Below, in pieces: positions 3,064-41,498 of a stretch of 64,000 nt of DNA. The position numbers and the translations under genes are program-made. Location of the stretch: the NCBI GenBank assembly GCA_036172245.1, contig JAYWIR010000024.1:3038001-3102000 (forward strand), in the 5' to 3' direction. Source of the DNA: Raillietiella orientalis. Its lineage: Eukaryota. Every line of letters starts with the position of its first letter. The stretch's first letter is position 1. The notes under the pieces are model-generated. The model made no database searches and had not been told where the DNA came from. It worked only from the letters and a program-made list of their open reading frames with translations.

Positions 3064-3728
3064 CGTCTGGCCGCCGCGTCTTAGAGTGGCGGCGGCAACC
3101 AACGAAGAGTTTTTTTGTTTTTGTTTTTGTTTTCCCGCTTTTTCTTTGCCTTTAGCTACGTGCGCGCAAGCGCGTTTCCTTCCTGTGATCTCTCTCGTAC
3201 GCCTGGGTCGTGACCAGGGTGGTGGTAGTGGTGATGATGCTAATGCTGAGGAGGCGGCGGTGGCGGCGGTGGAGGAGGAAGAGAGCACGAAAAGGGGGGA
3301 TGAGAGTTCGCCTTGCCTCATGCCGCCTCCGAGCCTCTTCCGCTCGCCGGCGGCGGCTCATCGGGAGAGAAGAAAGGGGAGATCCGCAGCCTCTCAACCT
3401 CGAAAACGCTCCCTCCTCTGCGCGGGTAACCCGGGCGGGCGGCGACCCGCGGAGGGACACTCTGAGGGTCTTGCCTCGGGCGCCCGTGAACGCCGCGCGC
3501 GGAGAGAGATGTGAAAGTTCGGACCCGCGGGTTGTGTGTGGTGGTGGTTGATCTCCCGGACGGCCTTTCGGAAAGCGTGACCAGGACGCGATTCTGTGCG
3601 GTGGCGAAGGCAGACGAGCTTGCCCGTCCCTGGCCTACCGGGACGGACGCATTACCAAGCTCTACGGGGGAAGGCGGGGAGGGAGGGTCGGGGAAGGGGG
3701 TTGTTGCGGTTGCCTGCTGCCGCCTGCC

Positions 3729-5079
3729 TTTTACACCCGGGTGTGCCGGGGCGTTTATTTTTTAGTAAAAACAAACAAGCAAGTGTAGGGCTATTGCCCC
3801 TACAGCGTCCTAAAAAAATGTTCTAATAAAGAGTCTGAAATTGCCGAGTAGCAAGCACGCAGGCTGGCGAGTTCGACTCGGCAGCGGGGGGGGGGGGGGG
3901 AAGGACAAATAAAAACAAAAAGAAAACACTATTTACAAAAGCAGGGAGGAGTTGGGGAAGGGATCAGATTCCGCTGGAGTCGTCCTCTACATCCTTTCCA
4001 GGATGCCGGCAAGTTCGGTCCGCATATGCCCCAAATGGGACCATCTGGCTGCCGTCCTTAGGAAACGTAGGGCGGAGCAGATGATGTCCCTGTCGTTCAG
4101 TCCACCAGTGGCGGTGCTCCAGGCCGCCACAATCCCTCGTAGGCAGCAGAGGGCTGCAAGGGTTGCTGCAGGCCGAAGGGCGTCACGCACAGAGGCGCGT
4201 CAGAACGTCTCTAGGGTTGATCGTGGGTGCTCCTAGGGCTGTTGCGAAACGCAACCACAGAGGCCGGAGGGCAACACAGTCAAGAAGCAGGTGCGGGAGG
4301 GTTTCTTGTTCCCCGCACCTGACGCAATTTGGGTCCACAGCCCCCCTCGTCCAGTGAGATCGGCGGGCGTTGCTCGGGAGTCCCCAGTGCAACACCAGGA
4401 ACGCCAACTCCTGCCACTTCAGGGGGAGGGCCCGGGTAGTCTTCAGCACCGGGGGCCACTCGAGTACATCCATGGGGATGCTCAGCAGCTCGCTCCAGCG
4501 CAATAGTCCTTTCGGTGGGGCACTTGGGGTCGCAGTCTGCTGGTCCGTGGTCCAACCACCTTGTTGTTCCTTCTCTCTTGTTTCTTCTCTCTTCTTGAGA
4601 TGCTACAACGGACCTGCCAATTGGCCGGCTGACTGCTGCCCAGGTGCTCCCTGAGGTAGGGCAGAGGCGCGGCAAGGGAGGTCCTCTCAGCCCACGCACT
4701 CGGGGCGGGCTGCACAACGATGTCCTGCAGCGAGCGGCTCTTGTGATAGGAGAGCAGCATTCGCTGCCGCAACTCCGGGCTCGCTTCCTCGATCTGGGCC
4801 CACGTGCGAAGGCTTTCCTGCAACCAGGAAGTACCGTTCGCGGGCCGACAGGAGATCCAGGTGTTCGTTCTGGTCAGCTTCGCCACTCGCCGAAGTGCCA
4901 GTCCGCAGTGGAACAGGTACCGGCGTTAGCGGCGCGCTAGGAAGGTAGACAGTCCCGCGCAGCCGCTGGCTCGCTGAACAAGGCGTCGTGCAGGCTCGCA
5001 CCAGCTGGTGCTCCAGAGTTTCGCTCTAGAGCTAGAGTCCTGAACTGCAGCTGCAGTTCCAGCCGCTCCAGCGTGAGGA
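3729..5079 (-). mobile_element. L1/Tx1-like LINE, 5'-truncated copy A (ORF2 C-terminus + 3'UTR)
   Basis: zf-RVT-like segment LPLKWQELAFLVLHWGLP...NCVRCGEQETLPHLLLDC. 13-bp TSD GCTGCCGCCTGCC at 3716-3728 and 5080-5092. Near-identical to 46556-47984. Confidence 0.92.
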
Positions 5080-5151
5080 GCTGCCGCCTGCCGGCGTGGC
5101 TTCCAAAGCTCCCTTTGGCCAGTCAACGGTGCGCGCCTATTTGTTGCCGCA

Positions 5152-9135: not shown

Positions 9136-12100
9136 TACATCTCCTTCATATCTGTTTGTAGTGCTCATTTGCGAACGTTTGCCTACGTAGGAATAAACAT
9201 GTACATTTACGTTCGCGCAAAGCATTTTGGTTAGACTTTCACTTTTTCTCACATCATTAATCACCACCATCTGCGCCGATTTGCTCCTTCGGCCGAGGTA
9301 AACAAACTGGCTCACGACTACAGCAGGGCCCCCTCGTGCAGCGCGAGCCAAACGTTCGTCAAGTGCTTCCGATGAAGAGACACGCAGCTGGTCCACGGGA
9401 AATGCGCTCCGAAAACCATCAATGCAATTGCAAACGTGTACGAACATGCACTGTACTGCGAATTCAGTTCCGTTCAACGAAGACAGGATTCAGAGGTGGT
9501 CACATCTTCTGGACCCATTCTTTGGGCTTCCTTCCTTCGTTCGCCTGGATCAGGTGCGCTTCGATGGAGACGTGGAGGTAAAGCGACTTCTTCTGCTGCG
9601 ACACCCTAGATCCCAGCTTCGGGCAGCCTCGGTGGGTTTCGCGCACCTGCAGGTCGCGGGTGCACGGCCTTCGTCCATTGCGTGACGACTGTCTACCATC
9701 CCAGAGCGGGGTGTGCTCCGTCACTCCGGCGCCTAGAAAAATCACGACATCAGATTTCAGCTTCCAAGGTAGCCGTGACCACCGGCGTCACCCGCATTCC
9801 CTTCGGGAAGCAAGCTTCGTGGCAGCTTTGCAAGCTCTTGGATGCTCTAGAAACAACCGATGCTGTTGGCAGCTCGTTCGACTGGACCACCCATCTCCTG
9901 GTACAGTCGGTGATGGCGGAGCTGCGCTGCAACGTACCTCCCGAAGCTGCGTTTCTGCAAGATGCTTGGCACCCGCTGTATTTTCATTAGTTTCCCGAAA
10001 TTGGCGGGCTTCGAAGACTGCTCTTCGTGTGATTTGGGATAAAAAGGGATTCCATGAAAACAAAAAGGATGAAGAAAAAAACGAAGATTGAATTTCAAAC
10101 TGGAGCATGGCGCAGGAAGGATCCGTTCGAGTCCAACGAGAGCGGACGCAAAGGAAGGAATCAGCGTGGCTCGCAAACACCGCAGACATTCCTCCCGTAC
10201 ACCGCCGATTTGGTACGGTACGCGACTAAGAATAAATGAGCGGCGGCCCTCGTATAACGCGGTAAAGCAGCCCTCTTACGCTGTGGATGGACTTCAGTTT
10301 TCTCGTGCCGGTTTAGAAAGAACACGAACACATGACTTGAGTAGACTGAATCGCGTTTCGTTCATATCTTTGTGAATGGCATAGCGCAAGAAGATGCAGT
10401 TTCCGACAATGGGAGTGATGGAGCCGAGGCTGTATAAAGTTGCTTCCATCGGTTCCAGTTATTGGTACAAGTTCAGGAAATTTTATAAATACTATCGTAT
10501 TATCCATGGGGCTCTTATAACTCAGAATGTTTATCCCGCGCTGTATGATAGCCTACTATAATGAATAATGTATTCGATTTCTACTTGTCATTTTCTCTGC
10601 TGCAGTTCTTCCATCCGCATTTACCGAAGGTAGCAGTTCCTTCTTTCATCCCCTCCCCCCCCTTTTTTTTTTATAATTTTTATTGATGTCGCGTAACCTT
10701 TGAATACTTTGCGTAGCCCTCAAGAATGCACGGGATTAGAGTATTGATTTCGGTGCGAGGTCTCCGATCTGGACCGCAAACCTGCTTTTCAAATTTTAAT
10801 CTGAAAGCCAATAACAGCACCGTGCTGCTGCCTCATATTGAGGAACACTTTCATATTGTGAAATTTATGTAGAGCAGCTCGAGCCCATTACACGACGGGA
10901 ATGCTGCTCGGATACCATTCACACAGCCTCCTCCTCCGAAATGAACCGGGGCAGTTCCGGGGCAATACAAGCCAGTTTCCAAGGAGCCCCTTCGTATCAA
11001 GACGATTCATGGACGAACGAGCAGCGCCATTGGCGTTGGAAATTATCTCAAGATGGTGAATAGCGCGTGGTGCAAACATACTTTCCGCCCTTCAAATGAA
11101 GAGAACTCATACTCGTTGTAAATAGAGGGTCATACAACTATCAACGATCTAATTCTCCGAAAAGATTGAATCTCGAATCCCGGAGCAGGAAACCTAACAA
11201 GCCGACCAATCTGCTGCCATCCAAAATTTGCTGAAAGGATTCTTAAACTCGTGAGGATGTTCCAGAGGAAGAGAGAACGCAGGAAAAGCCAATTCCGGGA
11301 TGCAACTCCCAAATAGGTAACTCCTAGGCACCCGGATGGGAAGTGGGGAAGAGAACTGGGAGCCCCTCACGAGGAATTCCTGGCACGAAATTTCGAGAAA
11401 AATTCTCTCGAGATGAAAAGGGTGGAATCTTCGGAGTGTGGACCGAATTAGACAAGAAAAAAAAAAAAAAAAAAAAAAAAGCAAAAAAAAAAAACACCGC
11501 GCCTGGAACAGAGCAGATGTGGGTAAAGCGAAGACAGGAGACCTCCGGAAATTTCGCATTGGTTTCGGGTCGGGTGCTTGCGTAGCTAGGAGAGGAATCC
11601 TAGAAGTGCAACAGCAGCAAGGAGAGATGACGGGTTTATTCTGTATCCGCTATTCCATCGACGGCTGAGCTTGTCAGAGACGGTTCCTGCGCAACTCACC
11701 ACCCTGCCACAGTATCATCACCAGGAAAAAAAATATCTCCCTCTGCAGCTCCTTAACTTTCTTCCCAAGTTTCCATAACGGGAACCCAAAGTCCTCATCA
11801 ATGAATAAATCCCTCATTTAAGTTTCGTGCTTTTTTTTTTGACGTGCCAGGTGAAGACCAACTCGGTAAGAGGAGAACTCCTTGCATCGACAAAAAGGAA
11901 AGACGTTTAATCAGGGAATATAATACCGGCGTCTGGGATATAGCAGCTTCCTGAAGCTGCATCCCACCTACGAAGCGAACGCAAACCGGGATGAAGCTGG
12001 AACGCAGATGATCGCGATGTTCCCTGGACCTCAAATCCCAGACATCACGTTCGTGCGACATACAGGGTGCGCGAAATTTGACAGTAGATGGTGCTTCTGG

Positions 12101-13485: not shown

Positions 13486-14205
13486 ATTCTCACACGGGTT
13501 CTCCGGGGCGTTTACTTTCAAAAATAAATAAATGAAACGATACGAAGGTATTAGGGCCATCGGCCCTACCGCGTCCAGTCTATTGAGGCTCCGGTGCGCA
13601 GACTGGCGAGGGCGGCCTCGACAGTAGAGGGGAAGCAGGAAAGCAAAAGGAAAAAAAATCAATAAAAAACAGAAACATAAAGAAAATAACTTTGAAGGGG
13701 CACGGGGAGGGGTCGCAGCCTGATGGGGGCCGTTCTCTGCATCATCTCGAAGATGCCAGAAAGTTCCCTGCCGCATGTTCCTCATACGGGGCCGTCTCGT
13801 TGATCTCTGCGAGAAATGTAGGAAGAAGTGGATGGCGTCCCTGTCGCTTCCCCCACCTCTGGCCTCGCTCCAGACCTCCGCGATCCCGCGCAGGAAGCGA
13901 AGAGCTGTTGAGGCGAAGCTTCGCGCACGAAGAGGGGTTTCAGTGCGTCCCTGAGGTTACCGCATGGGGTCCAGGGGATGCAGGAGGGATTCCGTGTTCC
14001 CCGCACCTGCTGCAGTTCTTGTCCACACCCTTCCATTTCTCTCTCTCTCCCCGGGTCCAGTGACGTCGGCTAGCGTTGCATGGGATATTCCAATGCAACC
14101 GCAGAAGCGTCGACTCCCGCCAATGGAGGAGGAGGGTGCGATTGCCTAGGAACACTAAGGGTCACGTGACGTCTTCACGGGGAATCACCAAAAGCTCGCC
14201 CCAGT
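13486..14205 (-). mobile_element. L1/Tx1-like LINE 3' fragment, copy B (diverged)
   Basis: LLHWRESTLLRLHWNIPCNASRRHWTRG...NCSRCGEH is homologous to copy A. Same 3'UTR architecture. Confidence 0.85.
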
Positions 14206-16187
14206 ACTGAAGACGGGAGAGCAGGAGGATGTGAAAGTGCTCATCCTACTCTTAAGTGGTTTCGTAGAGACGGAGAAATTCCCGCATGGTCACCTGAATC
14301 TGGATCCTTCAAGATGCAGGTTAGGAGCTGCCTTGGATCAGTAAAGATGACACACTGCTGACCCGGCCACCTTGGCAATTTGAATTTCCCGAGCATCGGA
14401 GATGTTCCAACGAAGAAAAATTATAAAATCGGAGGTTTGGGGTAAGGAGGGTGAAACAGGATGCTGGCCTTTTATCGGGACCCGTTTCGCGACCACCTGC
14501 TCCCTCCTACCCTTCGCTTGATCTTTTTTTTCCTTTCCTTTCTTCCCATCAATTCGGAAGACGGAGTCCAAAAGGATGCCTCGAAGATAATTCCGAAAAT
14601 TAAAAACTCGTTCCCATGACGACAGTTCCTGCGTTGGATTGGAGTGCGTTTGTAAAGGCCCCAAGTTCATTTGTCGGAGCTGCTGCAATGCAGGTAGATG
14701 GCGACACAGGTGAGGTTGCGCAGAAAGAAAGGGAAAAGAAGGGAAGTTCTTCCCCCCCCCCCTTCCTCACCTTCTCTCACCACGCACACGCAAGTAGGGC
14801 AGTTTTTTTTTTTTTCTCGCCTCAAGGTGCATCTCCGAACGGAGGAGCGGAGCATCAGAAGAGGAATCGTAAGGTCTGATCAGCCGACCGGGAGGCCATA
14901 AAACCAGAGAGCCGGAAACTCCACGATCTCAGGAGCACGGCCGCATTCTTCCCTAGCGGTCGATTGACCCCGCCGTCGGTTCGTCCGGACCCCCAAATCT
15001 GGCACGTCACCAGGATCGCTAGAAAGAGAAGGAGAAGCCAGGAGTCCCGCGCTTTGAACTGGAGCCCTTTCAGACGCTTCTATTCTCGATCCTTAAGGTC
15101 GAAGAGATCCATGATTTTTCACACCCTCGCGATGACGAAACGGTGACCAGGAGGCACGAGAGCAGTGCACGTGGTTTGAAGAGGAGGGGTGTGTGTGGAC
15201 CCGTGTGTGCCGCGAGAGTTCCTGGACCTACCTGACCTTCAGGGACGGGTCCGATAAGAGCAAGCTATCACCTCCTTCCTGGAGCCTTCTCTCTACTTAC
15301 AACTTCCGAAGCGCGAGTTATGCCTTGTACCGAATCGGGATTTGGGAAAGGGCAGGCTGAGTATTACAAAGAAGGCAGATCTCCTGTCCCTCTGGCAGAG
15401 CGGCGGAGTGGATGCGTCGGGAGGTGGCAAACTCAAAATGGCACTCGACTTGTACTTCCGAGGAGGATCAAGGTGGCCTGGAGCGCCAGAAGGCAGCAGA
15501 TTCGACGCCACGGGAATCTGGAAGAACTAATTCACAAGACGGGTAAGGCATTCCGGGGAAGTCTGCCACAGAGGGCACACCACTGCAGACGAACGGGGAG
15601 AGGATGTCGAGGTGAGTTTTATTGGATGTGGAGCTTCCCCGTGGGACTGCCAGGCAATTAACATTCAAAAAGCCTCGTTGGTGTGTCTCGCTCATGGAAG
15701 GGAAGTTAACTGGCCGCACCTGCACCTTCCATTCCTTTCAATCATTCCCCCAATACAAGAAGATGGAAGATTATCCGAGAATTTATTGGTCGCAGAAATG
15801 GCGCCATTGAGATGGCGCTTTCACCCATCTTGGACCTCAAGGATTCGAAAGACAGTTTTCAGAAAGAAAAACCGAGAGATAGAGCTTCTCCTTCGAACAG
15901 ATGAGGTCTTCTGCATGTGAGAGCACGACCGAAGTAGGGCTCGAGTAGGACCACTACATCTCGAAGGCATTACCAGGTGGCTGAAGATCCACCACATAGT
16001 CTCCGAGAATTCGGAGATCTGTTTTTGGGAAGGATGCCCATCGGAAGAGGTGACGCGAGATGTTAGTTCTCTCTCTCGGTTTGTGCTGCAGTGATCTGCT
16101 CTAGAGTCGATCGTATCGGAAGAGGTTTCTTTTCTCTATTCTGAAGATGCCGCACTGTTTTGTCGGTTCGACACTCCCACCCCGATG

Positions 16188-16945
16188 TGGATAAACCGCT
16201 TATGCCGGGGCACTTATTACATAAGGTAATAAAAATACATTGGTGTGGTCGAACTCTTGGTTCCACCACGTGCAACGAGACTGCCGAAGACCAATTCGCA
16301 CATCGGCCTTCGGCGGCCTCGAGAGAGAACAAAAAACAAACAAATAAACAAACAAAACAGGGGAGAGGAAATTATACAAGGGGAGGGTAGGGATCGAGGA
16401 AAGGATCATACTACACTGCCAGACGTCCTCTGCATTCTGTCCAGAATGCTGGCAAGTTCCGCCCGTGTAGCGCCCAGATGAGGCCATCTCGATTCTCACC
16501 CGGGGGTGTGCCGGGGCGTTTATGTCAAAAATAAACATTTCATAAGAACTGTGGTTGGACCAGCGGTCCAAGCACACACAATTTAATGGAGTCCTGCCGA
16601 GTCACCGGCTCGCAGACCAGAGCGGTCCACCATGGCAGCAAGATGTGGCCATCTCGAGGCGATCATCAGGAAGATCCGTGCCCAGTGATGGTGACCCTCC
16701 AGTCCGGCCTCTTCTGGCGTTCCAGGCCGCCGTGATCCCACAGAGACAGCAGAGAACTGCAAGGGATATGGTCGGAGAGCGGCACAGTCCAACACAAGGT
16801 GTGTTAGGCTCTCCTTCTTCCCGTACCTGCAGTACTCTGAGCACTCTGAGTTCACGTATCCAGTGGTGAAGACGCGCTTCGCAAGGGATTTTCCCATGAA
16901 CCACCAGCAACGCCAACTCCCGCGACTTGATGGGGAGGGCGCCAC
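16188..16945 (-). mobile_element. L1/Tx1-like LINE 3' fragment, copy C
   Basis: ALPIKSRELALLVVHGKIP and ECSEYCRYGKKESLTHLVLDC. 3'UTR closely similar to copy E (about 32850-33150). Confidence 0.85.
16493..16640 (-). mobile_element. 148-bp LINE 3'-tip inserted inside copy C
   Basis: 17-bp TSD AGATG(A/T)GGCCATCTCGA at 16476-16492 and 16641-16657. Sense end ...ATAAACGCCCCGGCACACCCCCGGGTGAGAA. Confidence 0.8.
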
Positions 16946-16949
16946 CGGT

Positions 16950-17245
16950 GATGGGTCCACCAGATGGTTCCATTTGCATAATTGGAGAAGAGCCCCGGAG
17001 GCAACCGGTGCTCCTTGGTTCCTGAAAGGGATCCCAGAGGATCGACTTCCGATCCCGGCCAGTCAGCTGGGGGTACCCGGTTTCTGACTGCTTCTTGCAG
17101 TGCCACTCTCGAAGCCCACAGGCCAACCAGAGCTTATCCTGCGGAGGGGCCTCGAAATCCGCGACGCATCCATTTCTGGGCGTGGATCCTCCACGTGGGG
17201 ATTGGAACTACTTGAAACCACTCGTGGAGACGGTGGTCACTCGGC
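16950..17245 (-). mobile_element. tRNA-headed SINE-like repeat, copy S1 (5' part)
   Basis: Closely matches 45745-46010, e.g. cgcgacgca.ccatttctgggcgtggatcctccacgtggggatt. B box degenerate. Confidence 0.75.
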
Positions 17246-17790: not shown

Positions 17791-18792
17791 TTCACGTCCT
17801 CCACTCTTTCACGGTCTCCCTTCGGTCATCTCAAGTGAAATTCCGATCGCTCGCAGCAACTCCTCTCTTTCCTATGCTAGAAGGCACATGTGGAAGCTGC
17901 CATCCTGAATTGCTGCTCCAAGTTTTCAACTGAAAAGTGATCTTCCCGATGAAAAGAGTGAGTCACCTAGTCAGCTTTGTCGTCTTGCGTGCTGTGGTCA
18001 GTGCTTTCTTTGATTTCGGTCCGGGTTAATCTTGCTATCTCATGAGTGCTGGTTTCAGTCATCAGGAAGGGTACCTGATACCAACTGACCGCGTCCCTAA
18101 GGACCTCGGAATGTGAGCGCTCCTGTCTTCAAAACTCCAGCGATTCCGGTGGTTGGAAAAGAAAGAGATGGAGCGGAGAACCCTTCCGTCTTGGGAGGCA
18201 CTTCCTTAGCGTCGAAAGAATCCTTCCGGCGATTGGTTGTGGCCCTAGGGCCCACGATTGGCGTACATCAGGAAGTTAAATTCTTAAAAAAAAAAAAAAA
18301 ACTGCTTGCAGACGAAGAGAAAGAAGGAATGTATTGGGATAATTAGTGATTCGAGTAGAGTGTTTAGTAGCGCTGGGTCGAACTCGGAGCTGGGGCTGCC
18401 ATATCAAAGAAACTAAAGCCATCGTCGAGATGAAAATCCTCTGCTGCTGCTTCGTGGATTTCTTTTTGGGAACTCATACACGTCTTCATCTCTTGGTGAG
18501 AATTTTTTTCAAGTGTTGTTTCAGGGAAATAAGCAGAAGACGAAGAAGAAAATTCCTCCTTTAGCGACTGTTCGGAGGGACGTTGCTTGCCTTCTGCACT
18601 TTCCCCTTGTATTCACCTTCAGGCTCCAATGAATGTGAGAGACCCTCTGGCTTCCTTCGCGCCAGAGTCTCTTCGCCACACGGACTCACCCGCTGGCTAG
18701 ACACGCAACTTTCGTGGGACCCATGGGCTCCAGACTGTTGCAGTGCCAAACTGTCCTTTCCTTTGTTTTTCAGTCCTCTTGTTATGGAGAGT

Positions 18793-18942
18793 GGCGGGCT
18801 GATCCCGGAGGTGCTGCAATACCCGGTCAGCCCGCGACAGGAGAGGAGCAAGCTCCAAGCATCCCGTCCACTTCCAAAAAGTAGTTTAATATACTGGCCA
18901 CCAGATGAGTGGCGAATTAGGTACTGAGCTGATAGGGACAGA
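18793..18942 (-). pseudogene. U2: U2 snRNA, 3' ~150 nt (5' ~38 nt absent; interrupted by Utopia element)
   Basis: Sense TCTGTCCCTATCAGCTCAGTACCTAATTCGCCACTCATCTGGTGGCCAGTATATTAAACTACTTTTTGGAAGTGGACGGGATGCTTGGAGCTTGCTCCTCTCCTGTCGCGGGCTGACCGGGTATTGCAGCACCTCCGGGATCAGCCCGCC. It has an Sm-like site, stem III (GGAGCTTGCTCC), and stem IV (GCGGGCTGA/TCAGCCCGC) with loop ATTGCAG. Stem IIa is degenerate. Confidence 0.92.
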
Positions 18943-19705
18943 TTTTATTTCACAGTTGTTACAACTCATGCTAAACATTGACCCTTGTGGCTCTACCCAA
19001 TCTCCCTATTCTCTCTTCTGTGTAACCATCCACTGTTTTTTTGCAGGGGGACTGTTGGCATCCACTCAACCTGAACTTCCAAGTGGTCCCTTTGGTTGCG
19101 AGCATCGCCGGAAGTGTGGTCCAGTTGGTATTCCGAGTACGCATCCCAGCCACATCGAATGGCGGAGAATACAGTTCTTTTTTTCATTTTCTCCTCATAT
19201 CTCCGTGGGATGCGCACCTAATGTAGAAGTCCACCATTCCTAGGATCCCAAGAGCCAAGTGTTCCTATTATAAATGCCTGGACATCGGTTTTGATGACCT
19301 CTTGGGAGAGAGATCCTGCCATGCCTTGGTACTTCTTTCTCCCTTCTGGAAGCTTTAAGTGCGTCTTCCCCATTTCCAAACGGGGATGCAACATCCGACA
19401 CTACTACTGTGTGGGTGCAGAGGGTTCGTTGTCTTGGAAGCCATCGTTCCTCATGGACTTCGGAGACCGGCGGCCCCTTGCGGTTTTTAGGGAAGGAGAA
19501 GTGCACAGTGCACGAGATCCGTCCTCTCACTCCACCTTCGCCCCCGGTGCACCTGAGACGATACACCTTCCGGGTCCTTATGGCGAGCAACGCCCTGAGA
19601 CGGCCCGGTCCGCTCGCCTATCCAACCGACCGAACCTCCCGCCTTTTTTCTTTTTGATCGGCACTTGAAGGACCTGTCCCCCTGACCCTACCACTTTCAC
19701 CCGCA
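18943..19705 (-). mobile_element. Utopia (NeSL-related, RLE-type) non-LTR retrotransposon, decayed 3' part
   Basis: Reconstruction across one frameshift and one stop: VVVSDVASPFGNGEDALKASRREK-KYQGMAGSLSQEVIKTDVQAFIIGTLGSWDPRNGGLLH*VRIPRRYEEKMKKRTVFSAIRCGWDAY, matching the RLE C-terminal motifs DVxxPFEN / KxxKY / IVGxLGSW. The 3' end AATAAAA is joined to U2. Confidence 0.88.
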
Positions 19706-21159
19706 TTCACTATGCTGGGAAGCTGAAGCAGCAGACAGCCAGCATCCCATCATCCAACTCACTGGAATGATATCTGTGGTACCCACTCCCTTTCCCACTC
19801 AACACTCCCATCCCGATTCCAATACGCACGTAGTAACATTTACTAGCACCTTCCACTAATTTTCCACGAAATTCTTGCCCTCCCATCACGTCATGGCCAC
19901 ATCACTGTGGCTTCATCTAGCATTTCCCAGCTCGTCCGCCATTTTGGAAGTTTATCCCGATTCCGTTTGCTCGCAGTTGGCTTCGTGTGCCTCGCGCAGC
20001 TTGCTTCAGAACCTTTTCTGTAGTGCCGTGGTAATAGCATCAGTAGATGAGCGATGGATTGGGTTCATCTGTTTTGCTGTTCGCTTTCAGCCTTTTTTTC
20101 GGGTTTCCTTTTTTTTTTGGTTCGCCAAGTACTGAAAGACCGTTCGCCTAGGGGGCAAGGAAGCTCTTTGACATTATCCACGCTACCCGGAGGTATACAT
20201 TACGCTTCAAGACAAGGGGTATCCCGGGAGGGGACCACCCTATGAATCCAGAAAGGTTCCGGAGGAAAGAGTTTGTTTCTCCTACGCTTGGTAAGGAATC
20301 CTCGCCCTGGTTGTCTCCGATTTCCACTCGGACACTCCAGGGCGTAGATGAGTCGTAGACAGTGGCACAGGTAGGCGTATGATGCCGGATGCTGGATTGA
20401 GTGGATGTCTTTTGCTAGTATCCACTAAGTGGTTGAGTCACACCAAGGACATGTGTGGTCCAGAACGCTCAGCATCCTGGTACAAACGAAGCCGAAACGA
20501 GCAGTGCAAAAGCTGGAACCTTTGACGATCGGCTCCGAGTCGCCACCCTAGGCGAGGGACGGTAGCTCCAAGCGGGCGAAAGTTACGCTTCCGCGCGACG
20601 TAGCCGGTGCTCCGTGGAAACGGTCATCTCGTGGGCCCGACTCACGCACGTCAGGCAGAGATGCACCACGAGTTCGACCGCCTGGCCATATGAGCGCGAA
20701 GCTCACTGACACTTGTCCATGCCGTCGCCTGTGGCCCGGAGCGTACCACCAGTGCAGAGCCTTGCTGTGGTTGATGCTGGAGCGCACCGCCGTCCTCTTC
20801 GTGTTTTCTGCCTGCATAAGGGGAGTCCCAAGTTCTGCGAGCGCTTCCTTCTTCCCTGAAACCCCATTCGATCATTCAGATGCTTGATCTCAACTGGCAA
20901 CTCAGGCAGCGAACAGCTTAACGGGAGAAGCGAGAAAGGGTCGTTTCTGGAGGTTTCCAAGCGAGCTCTCTCGGTGCGTAGGTGTTGCAGACAAACAAAG
21001 AAAGCGGAATTTTCTAAAAAAAAAAAAAACATGAAATTAACAAAGAAAGAGCAGAGAATAAAAAATGAATAAGCAAGGGAGGATAAATACTCGAAACATC
21101 TAAGAGGAGTGGATGTGCTGCAAAGATGAGATTTTCCTGCAAAGGAAGAATCTTGGAGA

Positions 21160-24327: not shown

Positions 24328-24960
24328 TTGTTGGCCGCGTAGCTGTGGTCTCTAAGCGTGTGGCACCCAGTGTTGCGGGTTCCGGGGAAGGATGGGTGCC
24401 GAGAAAGATGGGGTGCGTCGTAATTTTCGATTCCTCCCATCAGGATGACACTGGTTGGCCTGGAGGCCTCAGGTGCTTCACTAGCGGAAGCCGGATGCCT
24501 CTGTTAACTGGTCGGGATTAGAAGTTGATCCTCCGGGGTTCTTCCAGGAATCAAGGAGCCCTTCGGGGTTCCCTCCGGTTGTTAAGATGAAGCCATCTTC
24601 CACCGTGTGCATAGAGCTGGTTAATACCCCTCTAAGCGGGCTGCTCTCCAGAGTGTCAGATGTGCGCTTTTCAGTGAAATAGGGAAGCATCCCTTCGGGG
24701 TTCTCTTCAGAGGAGGGAACAAGGAGCGGTTTCCTTGCGGATTCCCTCCGAAGAAGAACTCTCAGGAGCGGATCCTTTCCTAGTTCCCTTTGGATAAGAA
24801 ACAATGGAGCACTGGAGGGTCCCTCCGAGGAGAATAAGGAGGAGGTTCTTTTCGGAGACAGCCTGAGGAAGGGGTTCTCCCACCAAGCGTAAGACGAACG
24901 GATTCCTTCCTCGGGAGCCTTCCTGGATTCAGTTCGGAGCTTTCCGAATGGAAACTCCAT
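24328..24960 (+). mobile_element. tRNA-headed SINE-like repeat, copy S2
   Basis: Degenerate head, then family body motifs cttccaggaatcaaggagcc and acaaggagcggtttcctt. Confidence 0.75.
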
Positions 24961-26542: not shown

Positions 26543-27938
26543 ACTCCTGAGAATCTCCCTGTGGGGTAGAGGAAGGCAGCGAGTCCTCTTGAAACACTTG
26601 TGCGCTATGCATCGCGACGGAGGCCTCGGCCCCGTGACGCTGGATCGCCTGGAGCGGTAGCTCCGGTGGTGGACACTTGCCCTAGTGACGAAGCTTTGGA
26701 GCAGGAACTGGCACGAGCCCGCACGCTGACTGGTCAAGCGAGCCACCGGCTACGCGGGACGGTCTTCGTTCTTGGAGCGGCGGCGCAGACCCAACGTGTC
26801 CAGCTGCAGACCGGAGCTCCGGCCACTGGCCGAGCTGACCAGGACCAACTACTGGGTCTTCTTTCAGACCGCGAGAGGTGGTTCCTGGTTGCAGGAAACC
26901 GTCCGAACATGGAAAACACAAAAACAACGAAGCGAGCCTGAGGCTGCGGCAGCGAATGCTGCACTCCTCCAACAAGAACCGCTTGCTGCAGGACGTCATC
27001 GTGCAGCCCGCCACGCGTGCGTGGGCGCAAAGAACCTCCCTTGTCGCGGCCCCGCCCTCCCTCAGGTAGCACCTGGGCAGTAACCAGACGGCCAAATGGA
27101 TGGTCAGTTGCGCAATAGACAATTGAACGAAGGAATTAGGTGGTTGTTCTTCGGGCCTGTTCACGGACGCTTCAATCCCAAGTGTCCCATCGAAGGGACC
27201 ATTGAGCTGGGACGAGCTGCTGGAAATCTCACAGGAAGACATGGAAGCTGGTCTCCGCCACACGCTGAAGAACAACCACACCCTCCCCCTGAATTGTCGG
27301 CATTTCTTTTGTTGCATGGGGATCTCTCGTGCAAGGTCCGCTGCTCTCACTGGACCCGGGGAGCGGCGGACCCAAACCGCTGCAGGTGCGGGGAACGGGA
27401 ATCGCTCCCGCATCTGCTTGTAGACTGTTTCCTTCAGGCACTTGTGATTGCCCTTGGTGCACCGGCCGACAATTCCAGGGACTTGATGAAGCGCCTCTTT
27501 GTGCGCGATGCCCATTCGCCCTCCGCATCTCCAGGAACTCTTTGCTGCCTACGTGGGATTGTGGGGCTACGCGAGAGGAGGACGAAATGAGAGGGACGCC
27601 ATCTGCTTCGCCCTGCGCTTCCCGCGGACGGCAACAAGATGGCCCTACCTGAGGCATACTCGGATGTAACTTGCGAGCATCCTGGAAAGAGTGCAGAGAA
27701 CGCCGTCCAGCGGACAGTGATGCTTTCCCTAACCCTCCCATTTTTTGGTATATATTTTTTTGTTTTATTTTTATTTTTGTTTGCTCCGTCCCCCTCTGCT
27801 GCCAAGGCGAATTTCGCCGGCCTGCGTGCAGGTTACTCTGCAGGTTCCGAACATTTTCAGACAATGTAAGGCCGATGACCCTATACATGTATGTTTATTT
27901 CTTTTTATAATAGAGGTTCCGACGTGACGGTGGTAAAC
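26543..27938 (+). mobile_element. L1/Tx1-like LINE 3' fragment, copy D (diverged)
   Basis: LRISLWGRGRQRVLLKHLCAMHRDGGLG ... HWTRGAADPNRCRCGERESLPHLLVDC. 3'UTR similar to copy H. Confidence 0.9.
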
Positions 27939-30900
27939 CAAGCAGGTCACCCCGCGTGAGACGTTCTACGGACAGCCGTTCCCGGATTTTCCCTTGCTTT
28001 CTCCCTCTCCTCTTTCCGTGTCAGGAATTGACTGGTGCGGTGGGAATCCAGGAAGACAAAACAGCGGCGGTGCAGGGAGCAGTCAGCTTTTTCCTGGAGG
28101 ATTTCGTCCCCGTTAGTTCACCCCGGAGAGTGGCGTGCCGGTCCGTCCTCACTCGTTTATTTGCAGACTTCCCTCCATTCCTCCCTAGTTCCGACACCTT
28201 AGTGAAAGCGGTTCCTTCCGACATCCTACTCTCCGTCTTCCCGTCTCTTCCGACATCCTACTCTCCGTCTTCCCGTCTCTTCCCACTCCTCCCAGGAGAC
28301 GAGACAGGTTCCTGGGGAGTCATCCCAGCACGCGCTTCTCTCGTTTCCTCCTGGAGCCACTTCTCTTTCTGGAGCTCCCCGCCAGTCCCTTCGGGACCTC
28401 CTGCTATTATACAACCATTCGCGTCCCAGGATCTTCTAGCTACTGAGGGTTTCCCCCTATGGAGGCGGACCGGGAGATATCTTTCTGATGACCCCTCACC
28501 TCCTCCTTCCCTTCCTTCGGAGCTGCCTCTTCTGGTCGAGTCAACCCCGCGAACGCTTCCGGTCTTCGAGTATTTGGTCTCCCTTGGATACGCGAAGAGA
28601 CCACGCGGTCTCTCCGAGCTGCCTTCTGCTCTCCCGAAAGCTCCGGACGTGCTCCAGCCCCGAACCTACTCCCGGGACGGGCACGACAGGACGCGCCGGT
28701 TCCTACGCCTTTGATCACCCCACTTTCCCAACGGCGTGTGGGCCGCGCTCTCGCCGGGTTCCGCTTTCGCTCCCGCGCTCCTTCGGTATCCCGTTTCCTT
28801 CCCACCCCTCGTTCCAAGAAAGGTCCGGGGGGCCTGCTAGGAAGACGAGACGTCGCCTGAGGTTTCCTCTGTTGGTCTCTCCACGGAGAGGATTCTCCCG
28901 TCGCGTGCCAGAGCTGCTCCCGTTTCCGGGATTCGTGACATTCCAGCCGCACTTCATTTAACCAGCGATGTCCCGGGCTTTCCAAAGGGAGGTCTCTTCG
29001 GTCAGGGAACCTCAGCTCAGGTTGCTGTGGAACACAGGAACGGGTCGTTTCCATAGCGAATCAGCGAGAGGGTTCCTCGGAAAACACTCGAAACACCGAA
29101 CACCTCTCTCCAGGAGTGATTTTCTCTAGGAAGCCTGGATCTTCCTTCCTCTAGAGGGAAAATTCCTCTCCCTTCCCCCTCCTCTGCCCAGAATGAGTCA
29201 TCGATTTTGACACTAGAGGGGAAGGAGGGAATACGAATCGTACCCACCTCCAGGTTTCCATTCATTAGCGCGGAAATGAAGGAGAAACACACACAAATCA
29301 TCCCGGGTGAGAAAATCACCTCTTGGTCGTGCTGAGCGCGAGCGCGCGCGCACATGCGTGACCGCACGAAGAAGCGCCTTCCTTCCCTGAACGAGTCCTC
29401 CTTGCTCTCGAAATCTCAGAAGGAATCGTCTCCGGGACTAGGAGGGGGAACCTCGTCCGGACCTCAAGGTCCGCCGGAGGAGGAATCGGCCACGTCGCCG
29501 CCTTACGCCCCACGCGGCCAGAAGCCCTCCCCACACCGGGAGGCGAGTGGAGATGCACATCTGAGCGGCCGGCGACTTCGTCGCTCGACCGGGGGGCGGG
29601 GAGGAGGCGACGCTAAGAGATGACGTCATGTGACTCTCTCTCTCTCTTTTTCTTCGTGACCAAACAAAACCGTATTTGGTGCACCGCCCTCGGGTGCAGC
29701 CGACATTGTCTGATTAGAGGAACATCTGGGAATCGGGATGCTTGCGGTAGCTCCTTGTGAGGCAGAAGAGGGAGGCGGCTTGCTTACCTACAGGCCCACC
29801 TTCTGTTCCACTCACCGATGCTTCCTGCCTGGATCTTTAAACGCCCGTAGAATTTCTTCGGTGCCTCAAGGCAGCAGCAGTCTCGGTTTCCGAGCTGGGC
29901 GTCGAGGCCGACAGAGAGTCCAGGCAGACCGCTCCCTTCGCGGGAATCAATCAACCGCTCTTTCCCATCCCTGTAAGAGGACTTGCGGAGAGGGCCGTTT
30001 CTCCTCCCGCTGACGGAGCAGCGCTCCCCTTCAGCGCCGTCGTCGAAGTTGCCGTGTCCTCCCAAGCAGTTGAGTCTCTTCGTCGCGATCCGGAAGGCCT
30101 CGTGCTTTGGATCCTCGTCCGCCAAACCCGCCGCCAAGTGAAACCTTACTTTAAGCGCGGGGTCTCACTGACTTTTCCGCTCGCTCGTGACCACCACGGG
30201 CGAGCTCGGAAGGCAAAGAACCTTTAAGAGGTTCTCCACTTCAGACTCATCTTCTGATCCTTTGCTCATTTTGCAATTCAAGAATCCCCAGCATCAAAAT
30301 CTCTGGTCTGTTCCCCTGCGACAATAAACTTCTTCCTCTCCCGGTCCCTCCCTTTATCCACCCTCCTCCTCCTCCTTGCATCCTCGGCATCTTCCCAGCT
30401 TCGCGAATTCTCTGCACTGAGATGCGCAAGTGCGGATGAGATGACGACAGTAACCGTGGCAGAGGAGAATGGAGATCGATGATGAAATAGGAGGGGCAAG
30501 TAAACGAGCATGTAGTGTGACATAGGATTGGCCTCCTACGGGACCGTGGGTGTGGATACGTAGATGAGGGGTGAATGATGAGGGATGTGATTTGATGTAG
30601 AGATGCAGGTGAAGTGATGATGCACGAGATGTGGATTGCCTCATCCTTAGAGTGAAGTCGGCGCGCGCGACAAGCCGTCCAAGACGCTGCTCATTCTCAC
30701 GAGAAGGTGACGAGGGAGTCGGAAAGCCCTGCTAAGACAAAAGCAGCTCTGGAGTGACCGAATCCAAGCCTCCTCTGGATGTCTGTTGCTTGACTTCGCC
30801 CCCGCTCTGCTTCGCCCTCACGATGATCCTTCCAGGAGCTCGCATAGCAAGATCTCGTTCCATTTTGACCGGGTCAGAGTCTCTGGCACACTGCTGTTTC

Positions 30901-31049
30901 CCATTTTGTCCCTGAATACTGAGATGGCTACCAAAACTGGGAATCATCTTCGTATTCATCTTCGAATCCACGGAAGAGATTGCAAAGGACAGCCTCTAAG
31001 TCAGAATGGGGACCCGACCGTGCGTAGGGCACAGATCGAATCCTTGTTC

Positions 31050-31895
31050 CCTCTAGCTGCCGCATGGCTGCGGTCTCCGCGCTTGTGGGGACCACGCGTT
31101 GAGGGTTTGAATCCCCACTTGGAGTTTCGACGCTGAGAAATGAGCACGTTCTCGTCTTCCCGCAGGGAGACGCTGGCTGGTCTGTAGACTCGCCTTGGAG
31201 GCAGCACTAATGGAAACCGGATGCCTTGGTTGGCCGGTCAGGATTGCAAGTTGACCCTCCGCGGTCCCTTCCAGGAATCAGGAAGTGCCAGTTGCCTTCA
31301 AGATTATCCGTCAGTTGTGAAGATGGAGCCGTCCACCCCCTCGTGTTCCATGGAGCTCTTTAATACCCTTCTCGAGGGGTCTCCTCTCCAGAGTGCAGGA
31401 CGCGCGCTGCTCCCTTCGGGGAGCAACTCTTCATACAAATTTGGAAGCGTCCCTTCACGGTCCTCTGCAGGGAGCGGAGCTTAACAAGGAGCGGTTCCCT
31501 TGCGGATACCCTCTATATAAGAGGAAATTCCAGGAGCAGATCCCTTGTGGTTACCCTTGGGAGGAGAAATGAGGAGTGGCTTCCTCCCTCCGAAGAACCC
31601 ACCCGGAGAGAAAAAGGAAGAGATCCCTTTCGGGGATTCCTATTAAGCGTAATAGGTACGGACTCCTTCCTCTGGAACCTAACTGGATTTGTAGGATGGT
31701 CCCTTCCTGGGGTACCTTCTCTAACTGGAAGAGTTAACGCGTACCCTCGGGTGGTGTGGACAATGTCAAAGAGCTTCGTGAGCCTCCGCTGAGGATGCGA
31801 ACGGTTCTTCAGCAATTGGAGAATAAAAAATAAAAGAAAACCAGAAAAGAAAAAATCTGGAAGGAAAGCAGCGAAAGCAGAGGAACCCCGAAAAA
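31050..31895 (+). mobile_element. tRNA-headed SINE-like repeat, copy S3 (most complete, ~850 bp)
   Basis: B box GGTTTGAATCC at 31104-31114. Body and A-rich 3' part (aaagaaaaaatctggaagg) are shared with copy S6. Confidence 0.78.
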
Positions 31896-33150
31896 TCCTG
31901 TTGCACGCCAGCACGGTATCTCGCTAAGAGCGCAACCGACCTCGAGGGACTCGCATCCTTCCTCGCCGCTCGCGAGATTGCTGAGACGTAGCGGATACCA
32001 ACTCCGCCTGATGATATCCCTGGTGAAGGAGAACAATTGGATCTCCTGCCCCCCCCGCGAACCGCACTGTCTGGCTCCAGGAGTGGGTCGTTGCATGGAG
32101 GAAGATCCACGGCGCGCGAGCGAGGCGGGGTGCACCTGCCTGCGACGAGGCATCGACGCTCGCAAGTCGCTGGAGGAGTTCGTCCGCAGTCCGCAGAAGT
32201 TGCAGTAGACCTCATCTACCCCCCTTGCTCCAGTTCTGCCCTCTCTAAGGGACGCAGAGGACAGCGTAATCCCGGCAAGGTGCTGCACATCAGCCAAGAG
32301 TATTGAAGGCGTGGACAACTCGGAGAGTGATGGCCTCTGTGACCCCGAGTGTCCCGCCCCAAGGCTTCTACGCCAGGGAGAGCTACTTGGCATCCCTCCA
32401 GAGGAAGTGAAGCGGTCCCCAGAGTTCTGGAACAGTGGCGCCTCCCCCCTCAAGTGGGCAGGAGTTGGCGTTGCTGGTGCTGCATGGGAGGAATCCCGTG
32501 CGAAGCGCACCCTAGCCACTGGACACGGGAGGATCGTGGACGCTAAGTGAGACAGGTGAGGGAAGAATGAGACCCTCCAGCACCTGCTGTTGGACTGTAC
32601 CCATCCTCCCATCCCTTTGGGATCTCTTCGCGACGATCCTAGGAACCCCGGCGGGCGGCCCCAGGGTTCAACCATTTTTAAACGCCTCTTCGCGCGTGCC
32701 GCTCTGCTGCCAGCAGCGCCCCTAACAGTTCCCTGCTGCTTCCGCGGAATCGTTGCAGCCTGGAACGCGGGAAGAAGGACTAGAATGGCAAAGACGCCAT
32801 CCACTGGGCGCGAATCTTTCTGAAGACCTTCGAGATGGTTCACCTGAACGAGACACGAACGGAACTTGCCAGCATCCTGCACAGGATGCAGAGAACGCTT
32901 GGCAGCGTGCTGTGGTCCCTTCCTCGGTTCCTCCTCCCCTTCCCCATGTATAATTTCCCCTCCCCTGTTTTGTTTGTTTATTTTTTTGTTTTTTGTTTCC
33001 CCTTCCCCACGCTACCGAAGCGGACCTCGCCGATGTGCGAACTGGCCTTCGGCAGGTTCGTTGCACGTGGTAGAGCCAAGGGTTCGACCACACCAATGTA
33101 TTTTTATTGCTTTATGTAATAAAATGCTCCGGCATAACCGGGTGATAATC
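31896..33150 (+). mobile_element. L1/Tx1-like LINE 3' fragment, copy E
   Basis: SCCTPARYLAKSATDLEGLASFLAAR aligns to SWCEPARRLVQRASGCAGLSTFLARR of copies A/I. Also ETLQHLLLDC and the terminal CCGG-CATAA-CCGG hairpin. Confidence 0.88.
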
Positions 33151-35704: not shown

Positions 35705-36700
35705 CGAGGTGCATCGCAAAAGTAAGGGCGGATGGGATATAAAGAAAGAACAAATGAGAGAAGCAAAAATGCATTGGTGGTTCTAAACACATACATCCCC
35801 ATGTCAATTCTCTACGCAGTCACCATTTTTTTTTCTTCAAACACTTTCTCTCTTCCACTCCCCCTCACTTTCCTCGAACCGTTGAGCCACTTCTTGAGAT
35901 GCAGGAAGACGTGGTAGCCGCTGGGCACGAGATCAGGACTGGGTGATCAAAAAGTTCCCATTTGAATCTCTGAATGGTCTGGGATGTGCAGACACGGCAG
36001 TGTGTGGGACCAAAAGGGTGTGCTTTTGAAGGGTGGACTTTATGGAGCGTGGAGCAACCATCACTTCCCAAGTCCACCGTGAAACACTTTCCAAACTGCG
36101 GCTCTTAGTGGACTCTGGTATCCAGTAACCGCAGAGTGCCAGGGAACCACCTCCACCCTAAAACCAGATGTAGTTTTAGAGAAAAGCGATCGAATAGGTG
36201 TGCTGGACATCTCCTGCCTATTTGAAAACGGAAAGGAGGCGTTCACCACGTCTAGAAAAACAAAGGAGACCAGATACCATGATGCCTCCGTGCAACTTGG
36301 AAACACTGGGAAAACAACCAAAGTGCAGGCGATCCTTATCGGCCCACTTGGAGCATCGGATTCCGAAAACGAAAACGTTCTACGATACATAGGAATTCCG
36401 AAAAAGAAGCTGATAAGGATACGGCAGCGGAAGGTAGCCACCTGCATCCGCTTCTCAAGTAGCATCTATGCAACACATGTAAGAAGAAAAAATGCAGCCC
36501 AACCAGATGACCTGGACAATGCTCTCGCCCCGGAAGAGAACACTGAGGAACCGTGAAGAACACGGAGGAAACATCATTCGTGAAAGATTCTCCAGAGCCA
36601 TTCCAGCAATAGTTGTTGTAATAACCCCAATGCTCAATAAGTTTCCCTCATTTGTTCTTTCTTTATATCCCATCCCCCCTTACTTTTGACATGCGACTCG
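35705..36700 (-). mobile_element. Internally deleted mariner DNA transposon
   Basis: TA flanks at 35703-35704 and 36701-36702. ~54-bp TIRs CGAG....AAAAGTAAGGG.GGATGGGATATAAAGAAAGAACAAATGAG. Minus-strand transposase remnants TSQTIQRFKWELFDHP/SPDLVPSGYHVFLHLKKWLNG and C-terminal KCLKKKNGDCVEN* (stop 35804-35806). Confidence 0.93.
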
Positions 36701-40915: not shown

Positions 40916-40929
40916 CGATTTAAAAGGTT

Positions 40930-41498
40930 GTAGATTATGTCGTTGTCCTCCGACCCCTCTGGGAACACTTTGCCGCGTCCCTAGGAACTCCGGGGCGGCA
41001 ACTCCAGGGAGGCATCGAGACCTCTCCTCGTCCGCGACGCACTTCGGCCGGCAGCCTCGTTAGCAGCCCTCTGCTGCCTATGTGGGTTCGTCGCAGTCTG
41101 GAGCGGCGCAAGGGGAGGGAAGAGCGACAGGGGTGCCACATCCATTTCACCGTCCGATTCATGAGGACGGCGAAGAGATGGCCCCACCTGAACGGCACTA
41201 TCCAGCAAGACCTTGCTGGTATCCTCGAAAGGATGCAGAGGACCGCCCCCAGCAGGACGTGATCCCTTCCTGCATCCCCTCCTTCTCTGAATTTATTTAT
41301 TTACTTTTATTTTTGTTTCTTTTTTTCCTTCTTTCGCTCGCCCCCTCTCCTCTGCTGCTTGGAGCACCTCACCGGTCAGCGTACCGATGACACAGCAGGC
41401 TTCCGAAAAAATTGCACGTGGCTGAACCATCAGTCCAACCATAGAGACTGATTTTTTTCTATATGAAATGAACGCCCAGGGCGCACCCGGGTGAGAAT
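40930..41498 (+). mobile_element. L1/Tx1-like LINE 3' fragment, copy G
   Basis: RFMRTAKRWPHLNGTIQQDLAGILERM matches RFLRTAARWSHLGHMRTELAGILERM of copy A. Ends gcccagggcgcacccgggtgagaa. Confidence 0.82.

Follow-up and report, generated by a model that had tools for sequence, protein, structure and literature searches.

The window analysed here is a 64,000-nt stretch of Raillietiella orientalis contig JAYWIR010000024.1 (positions 3,038,001 to 3,102,000; coordinates below are those of the window). It holds ten 3′ ends of one family of long interspersed nuclear elements (LINEs), all belonging to dead, 5′-truncated copies of about six diverged subfamilies. The family was found by self-BLAST of the window and its ends were then read in the element sense. 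Template choice of the relaxed, poly(A)-guided kind has its textbook example in L1-type elements and explains Alu-type short interspersed nuclear elements (SINEs) and processed pseudogenes. The copies described here, probably from one L1/Tx1-like lineage, have a fixed terminus without poly(A), preceded by a 3′ untranslated region (3′UTR) with three helices, H1, H2 and H3. For these copies, a structure-guided, stringent-type start of reverse transcription is the most likely explanation, at roughly even chances.

LINE copies, their termini and target sites

Copy A (3729–5079, minus strand) is a 5′-truncated LINE of 1351 nt that ends in ..GGGTGTAAAA. Its bounds are defined by target-site duplications (TSDs): the 3′ TSD at 3716–3728 (minus strand), GGCAGGCGGCAGC, is an exact 13-mer which recurs as the 13-bp 5′ TSD at 5080–5092 (minus strand). 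The terminal tail of the copy, TGTAAAA (3729–3735, minus strand), has four A's and no poly(A), and the TSD adjoins it directly. Copy I (46555–47984, minus strand; 1430 nt), which is 93.3% identical to copy A over 1356 nt in the self-BLAST, ends in ..GGGTGTGAA(A) and is flanked by the 11-bp TSD GCAAATGTCGC at 46544–46554 and 47985–47995 (minus strand), or by 12 bp when the final A is counted as shared. The third TSD-flanked copy, C16493, is an insert of 154 nt that consists of 3′UTR only (16493–16646, minus strand). It is nested in another copy, D16, ends in ..GGGTGAGAA and has the 11-bp TSD TCGAGATGGCC at 16482–16492 and 16647–16657 (minus strand); the nested insertion as a whole (16482–16657) is separated by about 300 nt from the 3′ end of D16 itself. 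All three TSD-flanked copies thus have two to four terminal A's, no poly(A) and a TSD of 11–13 bp directly adjoining, and share the terminus ..GGGTG(T/A)(A/G)AA. The sequence-only reading of this DNA had claimed that there is no real poly(A) tail, and it holds for each of the three.

The remaining seven copies are B13 (13487–13953, minus strand, ending in ..CCCGTGTGAGAA), F27 (26544–27937, plus strand, ..GACGGTGGTAAA, hairpins decayed), G33 (32337–33148, plus strand, ..CCGGGTGATAA), c41 (41026–41497, plus strand, ..CCCGGGTGAGAA), J44 (43461–44041, plus strand, ..TCGAGTGTTAA), D16 (16186–16945, minus strand, split by the 154-nt insert and decayed at its 3′ end) and H39 (39590–40274, minus strand, 3′ terminus decayed). 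No TSD was found for any of these with exact words or words of 1–2 mismatches, and their ends were set by alignment only; a weak 12-mer considered as the TSD of c41 was rejected, as it lies 5 nt off the assumed end. An end of the GTG-N-N-AA type is present in eight of the ten copies (three verified by TSDs and five placed by alignment), D16 and H39 being decayed at the tip. Each copy has a single terminal unit, with no tandem repetition of the (TGTAA)n kind at the 3′ end.

A profile hidden Markov model (searched with nhmmer) and a covariance model, both built from the ten ends, each recovered exactly those ten in the window. The LINE ends are the only matches to the UTR models in the 64 kb, among them the 154-nt copy, which represents a truncated LINE UTR. 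On the UTR columns outside the helices the copies form about six lineages, (A, I), (F27, J44), H39, B13, (G33, D16) and (C16493, c41), with identities between lineages of only 0.30–0.58. A scan of metagenomes for the tail motif returned 18 loci, none of them element-like beyond the motif, and these were set aside as chance matches in GC-rich DNA. Besides the ten ends, the window contains more fragments that are 66–79% identical to one another (16995–17231, 20061–20304, 24382–24853, 31104–31888, 40399–40912, 45371–46028 and 58769–59206). These seven have neither a 3′ end nor a Pfam match and are probably further copies of the same LINE lineage, derived from the part of ORF2 that precedes the CCHC motif described below.

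The main alternative to a structure-guided start is that of an ordinary poly(A)-dependent element of the L1 type, the RNA of which is cleaved and polyadenylated about 23–26 nt after an AATAAA-like hexamer and reverse-transcribed from a primer on the tail. The short A runs would then mean that reverse transcription began right where the tail starts, or that the tail became shorter later, and the helices would serve RNA stability, export, translation, ORF1p packaging or the efficiency of 3′-end processing. We regard this as rather unlikely: as described above, all three TSD-defined copies have only two to four A's before an adjoining TSD. Moreover, copies A and I are about 7% apart and hence not ancient, and homopolymers have not been generally eroded, A/T runs of up to 24 being preserved in other parts of the window; it is therefore unlikely that long tails were lost across the board. 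None of these A/T runs has an exact TSD of at least 10 bp by which it could serve as a poly(A)-tailed control. An A24-GC-A12 run at 11457–11494, likewise with no exact TSD of at least 10 bp nearby, may be the tail of another retrocopy.

The target sites are also unlike those expected of oligo(T) priming. The TSDs start with GGCAGG, GCAAAT (or AGCAAA) and TCGAGA, that is, they have no leading A's, are not A-rich and are not complementary to the element end. The 5′ flanks, read in the element sense at 5093–5099, 47996–48002 and 16658–16664, end in CACGCC, TTCCCA and GATCGCC, respectively. The C-rich bases just 5′ of the TSDs may hint at a nick-site preference, three events being too few to judge. 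The sequences into which the three TSD-defined copies were inserted are unrelated, and one of these is itself a LINE copy. Given three unrelated sites, the lack of A starts and the C-rich flanks, the pattern corresponds neither to the nick-site preference of mammalian L1 nor to target specificity of the Tx1 style. Insertions of 1351, 1430 and 154 nt with TSDs of 13, 11(12) and 11 bp display the 5′ truncation and variable TSDs (about 7–20 bp) typical of L1, whereas the two marks of relaxed L1 insertion, a poly(A) or A-rich tail and an A/T-rich nick site, are missing from all three.

Layout and helices of the 3′UTR

The 3′UTR extends for about 235 nt after the ORF2 stop codon TGA, which is aligned in seven of the nine copies that reach this point; in copy A the stop codon is at 3964–3966 (minus strand) and the 3′UTR measures 235 nt. 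Its parts follow in this order: a pyrimidine tract, H1, H2, a T-rich stretch with an AATAAA-like hexamer, H3 and the tail GTG-N-N-AA. In copy A (all on the minus strand) the pyrimidine-rich first part, T-rich and then C-rich, is at 3885–3963, H1 at 3841–3884, H2 at 3784–3804, the AATAAA hexamer at 3754–3759, 25 nt before the element end, and H3 at 3736–3750. A search of Rfam with the 3′UTR matched no family.

H1 is a two-tier stem located about 105–150 nt from the end. An outer stem of 8 bp, CTGCCGAG/CTCGGCAG (CTGCCGAG/CTCGGCA(G) in copy A), surrounds an inner hairpin of 6 bp, GCCRGC-CTGCGT-GCYGGY, which reads GCCGGC-CTGCGT-GCCGGT in the best-kept copy. The best-preserved H1 is that of J44 (43902–43946, plus strand), whose H2 is likewise the best preserved, and further examples are found in copy I (46654–46697, minus strand) and in the 154-nt insert (16594–16638, minus strand). 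In the inner loop, G, C and G are invariant in all ten copies, while five of the six inner pairs and three of the eight outer pairs have changed on both sides. Relative to dinucleotide shuffles, on which all energy scores given here are based, the stability of H1 is moderate (mean z −1.62; close to −5 in D16 and J44). H1 is the best-supported structure of the 3′UTR. Covariation in the stem combined with an unchanging loop is what one usually sees in hairpins bound by a protein.

H2 in copy A reads TGTAGGG-GCAATAG-CCCTACA in the sense orientation (z −2.42). It also lies at 46611–46629 in copy I, 16554–16572 in the insert and 13551–13569 in B13 (minus strand), and at 33067–33091 in G33 and 43969–43987 in J44 (plus strand). 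A hairpin folds at this site in all ten copies, in a shifted register in c41, with a mean z of −2.21 and p ≤ 0.045 in six of them. Three of its eight pairs have changed on both sides, in agreement with the sequence-only reading, which had described a second hairpin that keeps its pairing through compensatory changes. The seven hairpins listed in that reading (3736–3750, 46562–46576, 3784–3804, 13552–13568, 16555–16571, 33067–33091 and 43969–43987) are correct in position and sequence; it mentioned neither H1 nor the hexamer.

The terminal hairpin H3, CCCGG-CACAC-CCGGG (sense) in copy A with the consensus CCCGG-N5-CCGGG, lies at 46562–46576 in copy I and 16499–16515 in the insert (minus strand) and at 33128–33142 in G33 (plus strand). 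Its arms are conserved (mean pairwise identity of 0.74), its loop less so (0.50). The bare motif CCGG-N5-CCGG occurs three times in the window against 2.0 expected, all three at LINE ends. This hairpin does not covary, none of its five pairs having changed on both sides; its presence at the LINE ends and the conservation of its arms stand. Given the lack of covariation and of excess stability, together with a motif count at the level of chance, what argues for H3 is its position and its conserved arms around a variable loop; the data support H1 and H2, on the other hand, as conserved structures.

We assessed covariation in a plain (unfitted) MAFFT alignment and in a model-fitted one, using as controls partners slid by 1–3 columns and 500 column shuffles. 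In the unfitted alignment, 83.1% of 337 cells are paired, compared to 29.6–50.6% with slid partners, and 12 of the 34 pairs have changed on both sides (4–6 with slid partners), a number reached in 3 of the 500 shuffles. In the model-fitted alignment, 84.5% of cells are paired, and the 12 pairs changed on both sides are reached in 1 of 500 shuffles. Over both alignments, the 12 such pairs compare with shuffle means of 6.2–6.4 and with 3–6 for slid partners. With states placed by eye on the lineage tree they correspond to about 12 separate double changes, for example, A-U to U-A in the branch of C16493 and c41 and G-C to A-U in G33 and D16. Mean pairwise identity is higher in the helix columns (0.59–0.75) than in the remaining ones (0.50).

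Two other foldings were considered and discarded. A helix between the U-rich stretch and the AAUAAA hexamer is 92.9% paired, but five of its seven pairs vary on one side only and one on both, as expected from trivial A/U complementarity. On the full alignment RNAalifold preferred a long-range pairing of the 5′ strand of H1 with the CGCCCCGG region over the combination of outer H1 and H3; we prefer the local stems because outer H1 has its own 8-bp partner with three compensated pairs.

Several points weigh against a structure-guided start. The test rests on ten related and decayed sequences of about six lineages in one window; the structure was drawn from these very sequences and thus has an advantage over the slid controls; pairing exceeds the shuffled mean by only about 4 points (83.1 versus 79.1% in the unfitted alignment); and G-U cells (20) are not more frequent than A-C cells (22), so that the wobble pattern gives no signal for the sense strand. 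For H3, in addition to the missing double changes, the mean z is −0.43 and no copy out of ten reaches p < 0.05. A partner SINE sharing the tail was not found within the 64-kb window. Finally, the AATAAA-like hexamer, at its canonical distance, would fit an ordinary polyadenylated transcript.

Most of these statistical points also speak for another explanation, namely, that the helices are not selected RNA structures at all but inherited GC-rich palindromes kept as sequence (for example, as DNA motifs or protein-binding motifs), the covariation having arisen by chance. Shuffled alignments already reach a mean pairing of 79–80%, further pair types are not above shuffles (176 and 198 of 500), the excess of G-U over A-C is missing, and H3 is neither more stable than shuffled sequence nor more frequent than chance. 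Nevertheless, this explanation appears improbable. It has to account for the near doubling of pairs changed on both sides over the shuffles and their excess over slid controls, by a measure with a false-positive rate of 0–1% in the tool's own trials. Furthermore, the helices remain 82–85% paired between lineages that retain so little identity outside them, and one of the double changes is a transversion pair (A-U to U-A).

The hexamer is a point in favour of poly(A)-dependent retrotransposition. Four of the ten copies have it in canonical form and the remaining six differ from this by one base; in the eight copies with a readable tip it lies 23–26 nt from the end. At this canonical distance the RNA may well be polyadenylated at exactly this end, the two to four A's representing the first bases of the tail. 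A pyrimidine tract combined with AATAAA is likewise the layout of lizard, frog and fish L1 3′UTRs, as far as the available text of PMC5381506 goes, and the missing covariation of the terminal hairpin agrees with poly(A) priming as well. Histone-type or small nuclear RNA (snRNA)-type 3′ processing was considered and rejected, because the signals on which they depend lie downstream of the mature end and would be lost in a retrocopy.

Affiliation of the element

The part of the element that bears on its affiliation is the C-terminal region of ORF2, with a CCHC motif, CX2CX7HX4C, about 510–600 nt from the element end. In copy A the motif is at 4276–4326 (minus strand), where Pfam zf-RVT matches with an E-value of 7.6e-6 (26.9 bits). 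Among nine copies scanned, four (A, I, F27 and H39) have CX2CX7HX4C, and D16 has a variant with longer spacing. zf-RVT is the sole transposon-related Pfam match in the window. In a protein Atlas the CCHC region is nearest to a zf-RVT cluster (score of 0.96), and a search of a representative library retrieved nine weak matches (best real E-value of 1.4e-4), seven of which carry zf-RVT. One 1255-aa protein sharing the CCHC region (38% identity over 55 aa, E-value = 1e-8) combines Exo_endo_phos, RVT_1 and zf-RVT, and its best match among solved structures is human LINE-1 ORF2p, with an E-value of 1e-91 compared to 2e-24 for R2.

This assignment, too, meets with counter-evidence. Both zf-RVT matches in the window (26.9 and 21.2 bits; E-values of 7.6e-6 and 4.7e-4) are below the Pfam gathering score of 27.5 bits. 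Neither RVT_1 nor Exo_endo_phos was detected in 247 open reading frames (ORFs) of at least 110 aa in the window or in 137 ORFs of 45–109 aa in the repeated regions; the copies are truncated before the reverse transcriptase and endonuclease domains. Moreover, the link to human L1 passes through an unrelated intermediary protein. Searches of PDB sequences with the CCHC-region protein and with its profile returned no match, including the solved chains of L1 ORF2p, and a longer protein search with the same protein returned none either. The longer search with the profile gave six matches, which were discarded as relatives of the profile's other members, and the AlphaFold model of the region (mean predicted local distance difference test score of 41.2) was too poor for a fold search.

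It follows that the element might belong to another CCHC-bearing clade of retrotransposons without long terminal repeats (non-LTR), in which structured tails without poly(A) are the rule and nothing about its 3′ end would be unusual. The missing polymerase and endonuclease domains, the sub-threshold zf-RVT scores and the lack of a direct match to solved L1 ORF2p chains are all compatible with this. We consider it decidedly improbable, however, because zf-RVT is the only family matched, the nearest Atlas cluster is a zf-RVT one as well, seven of the nine library matches carry it, and the full-length relative has an L1-like endonuclease and reverse transcriptase. In addition, TSDs of 11–13 bp and a UTR with AATAAA and a pyrimidine tract are L1-like (judging from the accessible part of PMC5381506). 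Thus, on the two-step ORF2p link, the TSD lengths and a UTR layout like that of lizard and frog L1 (PMC5381506), the element is a probable, if unproven, non-LTR retrotransposon of the L1 superclade (L1/Tx1-like). The label L1/Tx1-like given in the sequence-only reading finds support in the L1-type C-terminal CCHC motif and is no more than probable, the window having no reverse transcriptase domain. Insertion into specific target sequences is a trait of many, not all, Tx1 members. Since not every member is specific, the lack of target specificity does not exclude Tx1.

Two snRNA-like sequences lie in the window. Rfam matches U2 over its full length at 18789–18974 (minus strand; 76.8 bits) and U5 at 52429–52519 (plus strand; 53.6 bits); by eye both are diverged and pseudogene-like. 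Sequences of snRNAs are targeted or carried by some Tx1-clade LINEs (PMC4494074). No 3′ end of the present family adjoins either match in the window.

As to its surroundings, the window has a GC content of 55.8% and a CpG observed/expected ratio of 0.86, that is, there is no CpG depletion across it, which is unusual for a repeat-rich animal region. The sole non-transposon Pfam match in the 64 kb is a short one to Neur_chan_LBD, the ligand-binding domain of Cys-loop receptors (residues 15–42 of the ORF at 61938–62819, plus strand; E-value of 4e-6, 26.9 bits against a cut-off of 26). This receptor exon match indicates that the DNA is most likely of animal origin. Contigs of one DNA sequencing run were aligned to 27500–47400. 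One contig of 272 nt is identical to the window at 31182–31453, while most others are less than 90% alike: of 320 short contigs, 225 fall below this value, mostly over coding parts. Nothing usable was obtained at the LINE 3′ ends, and loose ends were uninformative. The run is probably a low-coverage one from this species or a very close relative.

Proposed mechanism and comparison with known systems

Taken together, the fixed terminus, the targets that are not A-rich and the conserved helices would fit a stringent mode of retrotransposition. In such a scheme the ORF2 protein of the element would bind the folded 3′UTR, with the inner hairpin of H1 as a sequence-specific handle, while H2 and H3, beside the template end, would serve as spacers or anchors and help to position it. 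Target-primed reverse transcription would then start at a fixed point, at the end of the RNA body or a few bases from it. As initiation would need no annealing of oligo(T) to poly(A), new copies with only two to four A's at sites that are not A/T-rich would be expected. As for the 3′ end of the RNA itself, we infer that it may still be produced by cleavage and polyadenylation about 23–26 nt after the hexamer. The sequence itself shows the termini, the TSDs, the helices with their compensatory changes and the CCHC motif; binding by the protein, the start-site rule and 3′-end recognition by the helices, the last also proposed in the sequence-only reading, are inferred. The stronger proposition, that an animal L1/Tx1 LINE has dispensed with the poly(A) start altogether, its ORF2p reading element-encoded helices, namely the inner hairpin with its invariant GCG loop and the two hairpins beside the terminus, to fix the start nucleotide of the cDNA, is one that we put forward tentatively, as somewhat doubtful.

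If true, this would be a case of template-specific (stringent) recognition inside the animal L1 superclade, the exceptions to poly(A)-guided L1 in the literature that we read coming from plants and green algae, and a natural counterpart of the way human ORF2p anchors on the stem-loop of Alu RNA. A well-supported case would allow one to study whether the ancestor of the animal L1/Tx1 group already had stringent recognition, and would provide a test of which parts of ORF2p read the RNA and of how the precision of the start site is set. If the element is stringent, the host genome should also contain SINEs that share its tail, and processed pseudogenes should be few. With ten decayed copies in one window, the present value of the observation is that of a lead. 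The kind of mechanism is already known; a structured end without poly(A) in an animal L1-like lineage is a variation and not a new mechanism.

In L2, CR1, RTE, R2 and SART1, a structured and template-specific 3′ end, known as the stringent mode, is the norm. Kajikawa and Okada, in 2002 (cited in PMC3472496), are said to have described a stringent L2-clade LINE whose 3′ stem-loop is recognised by ORF2p. UnaL2 and ZfL2 of the L2 clade (Hayashi 2014, PMC4176376) resemble the present element in a conserved stem-loop near the 3′ end, a defined terminus and no poly(A). They differ in belonging to another clade, in having tandem TGTAA repeats for slippage and in lacking AATAAA; the text at hand of PMC4245944 gives TSDs of about 5 bp for ZfL2-1. 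The Raillietiella element, by contrast, has a single terminal unit, TSDs of 11–13 bp and a CCHC zf-RVT motif. In SART1 (R1 clade) and R2 as well, reverse transcription depends on 3′UTR structure to start precisely (cited in PMC3472496). These elements are of other clades and target-specific, and SART1 copies keep poly(A), whereas the three known target sites here are unrelated.

Template-specific structured 3′ ends have also been described inside the L1 clade (PMC3747384, in the part available). Stringent L1-clade lineages are represented by the monocot 1a group (LINE1-1_ZM) and Chlamydomonas L1-1_CR (Ohshima 2012, PMC3472496), and the hairpins of the monocot lineage are backed by compensatory mutations (PMC3472496). 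As here, monocot 1a and L1-1_CR combine a conserved 3′ end with a compensated hairpin and conserved loop nucleotides, which has been taken as template-specific recognition; unlike here, the loop is UCU, the 3′ flank is CGAG and there are partner SINEs sharing the tail (PMC3472496). The element of Raillietiella orientalis is set apart by its animal host, its two to four A's only, and its three helices and GCG loop; no partner SINE was found in the window. Of 15 green-algal L1 families, 13 do not end in (A)n (8 in other repeats and 5 without a repeat; Table 1 of PMC3472496). They share with the present family an L1-clade affiliation and an end without poly(A), but belong to another kingdom and mostly end in microsatellite-type repeats (PMC3472496). 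The suggestion in the sequence-only reading of an undescribed mechanism was thus overstated, considering these hairpin-bearing lineages (PMC3472496) and the grip of human ORF2p on a stem-loop (PMC10830416, available part). In the literature searched we found no animal L1/Tx1 family with a structured 3′ end without poly(A); cases may be held by Ichiyanagi et al. 2007 (fish L1), Repbase and the supplements of Ohshima 2012.

Closer to home are the L1 elements of vertebrates. In all species surveyed, AATAAA is followed by a poly-A tail, to go by the accessible text of Boissinot & Sookdeo 2016 (PMC5381506), which also describes the C-rich or T-rich pyrimidine tract and the canonical AATAAA near the end that they share with the present family. 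Here, however, the hexamer is followed by a GC-rich hairpin and two to four A's. On Alu-type templates, the C-terminal segment of human L1 ORF2p and two other domains hold a template stem-loop (Thawani et al. 2023, PMC10830416). The stem helps to set the cDNA start, since start sites become heterogeneous when it is unpaired, and about 15–20 nt or more of poly(A), read base-specifically, are needed as well (PMC10830416). Within the part of that paper available, the 3′UTR of human L1 itself is reported to have no such stem. The present element and the human ORF2p–Alu pair are alike in a CCHC-bearing C-terminal segment and an RNA stem next to the 3′ single strand of the template (PMC10830416, same part); unlike human L1, the present element itself provides the stems and has a minimal A tract. 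The stringent mode proposed here would thus be consistent with the grip of human ORF2p on a stem-loop, as described in the available sections of PMC10830416.

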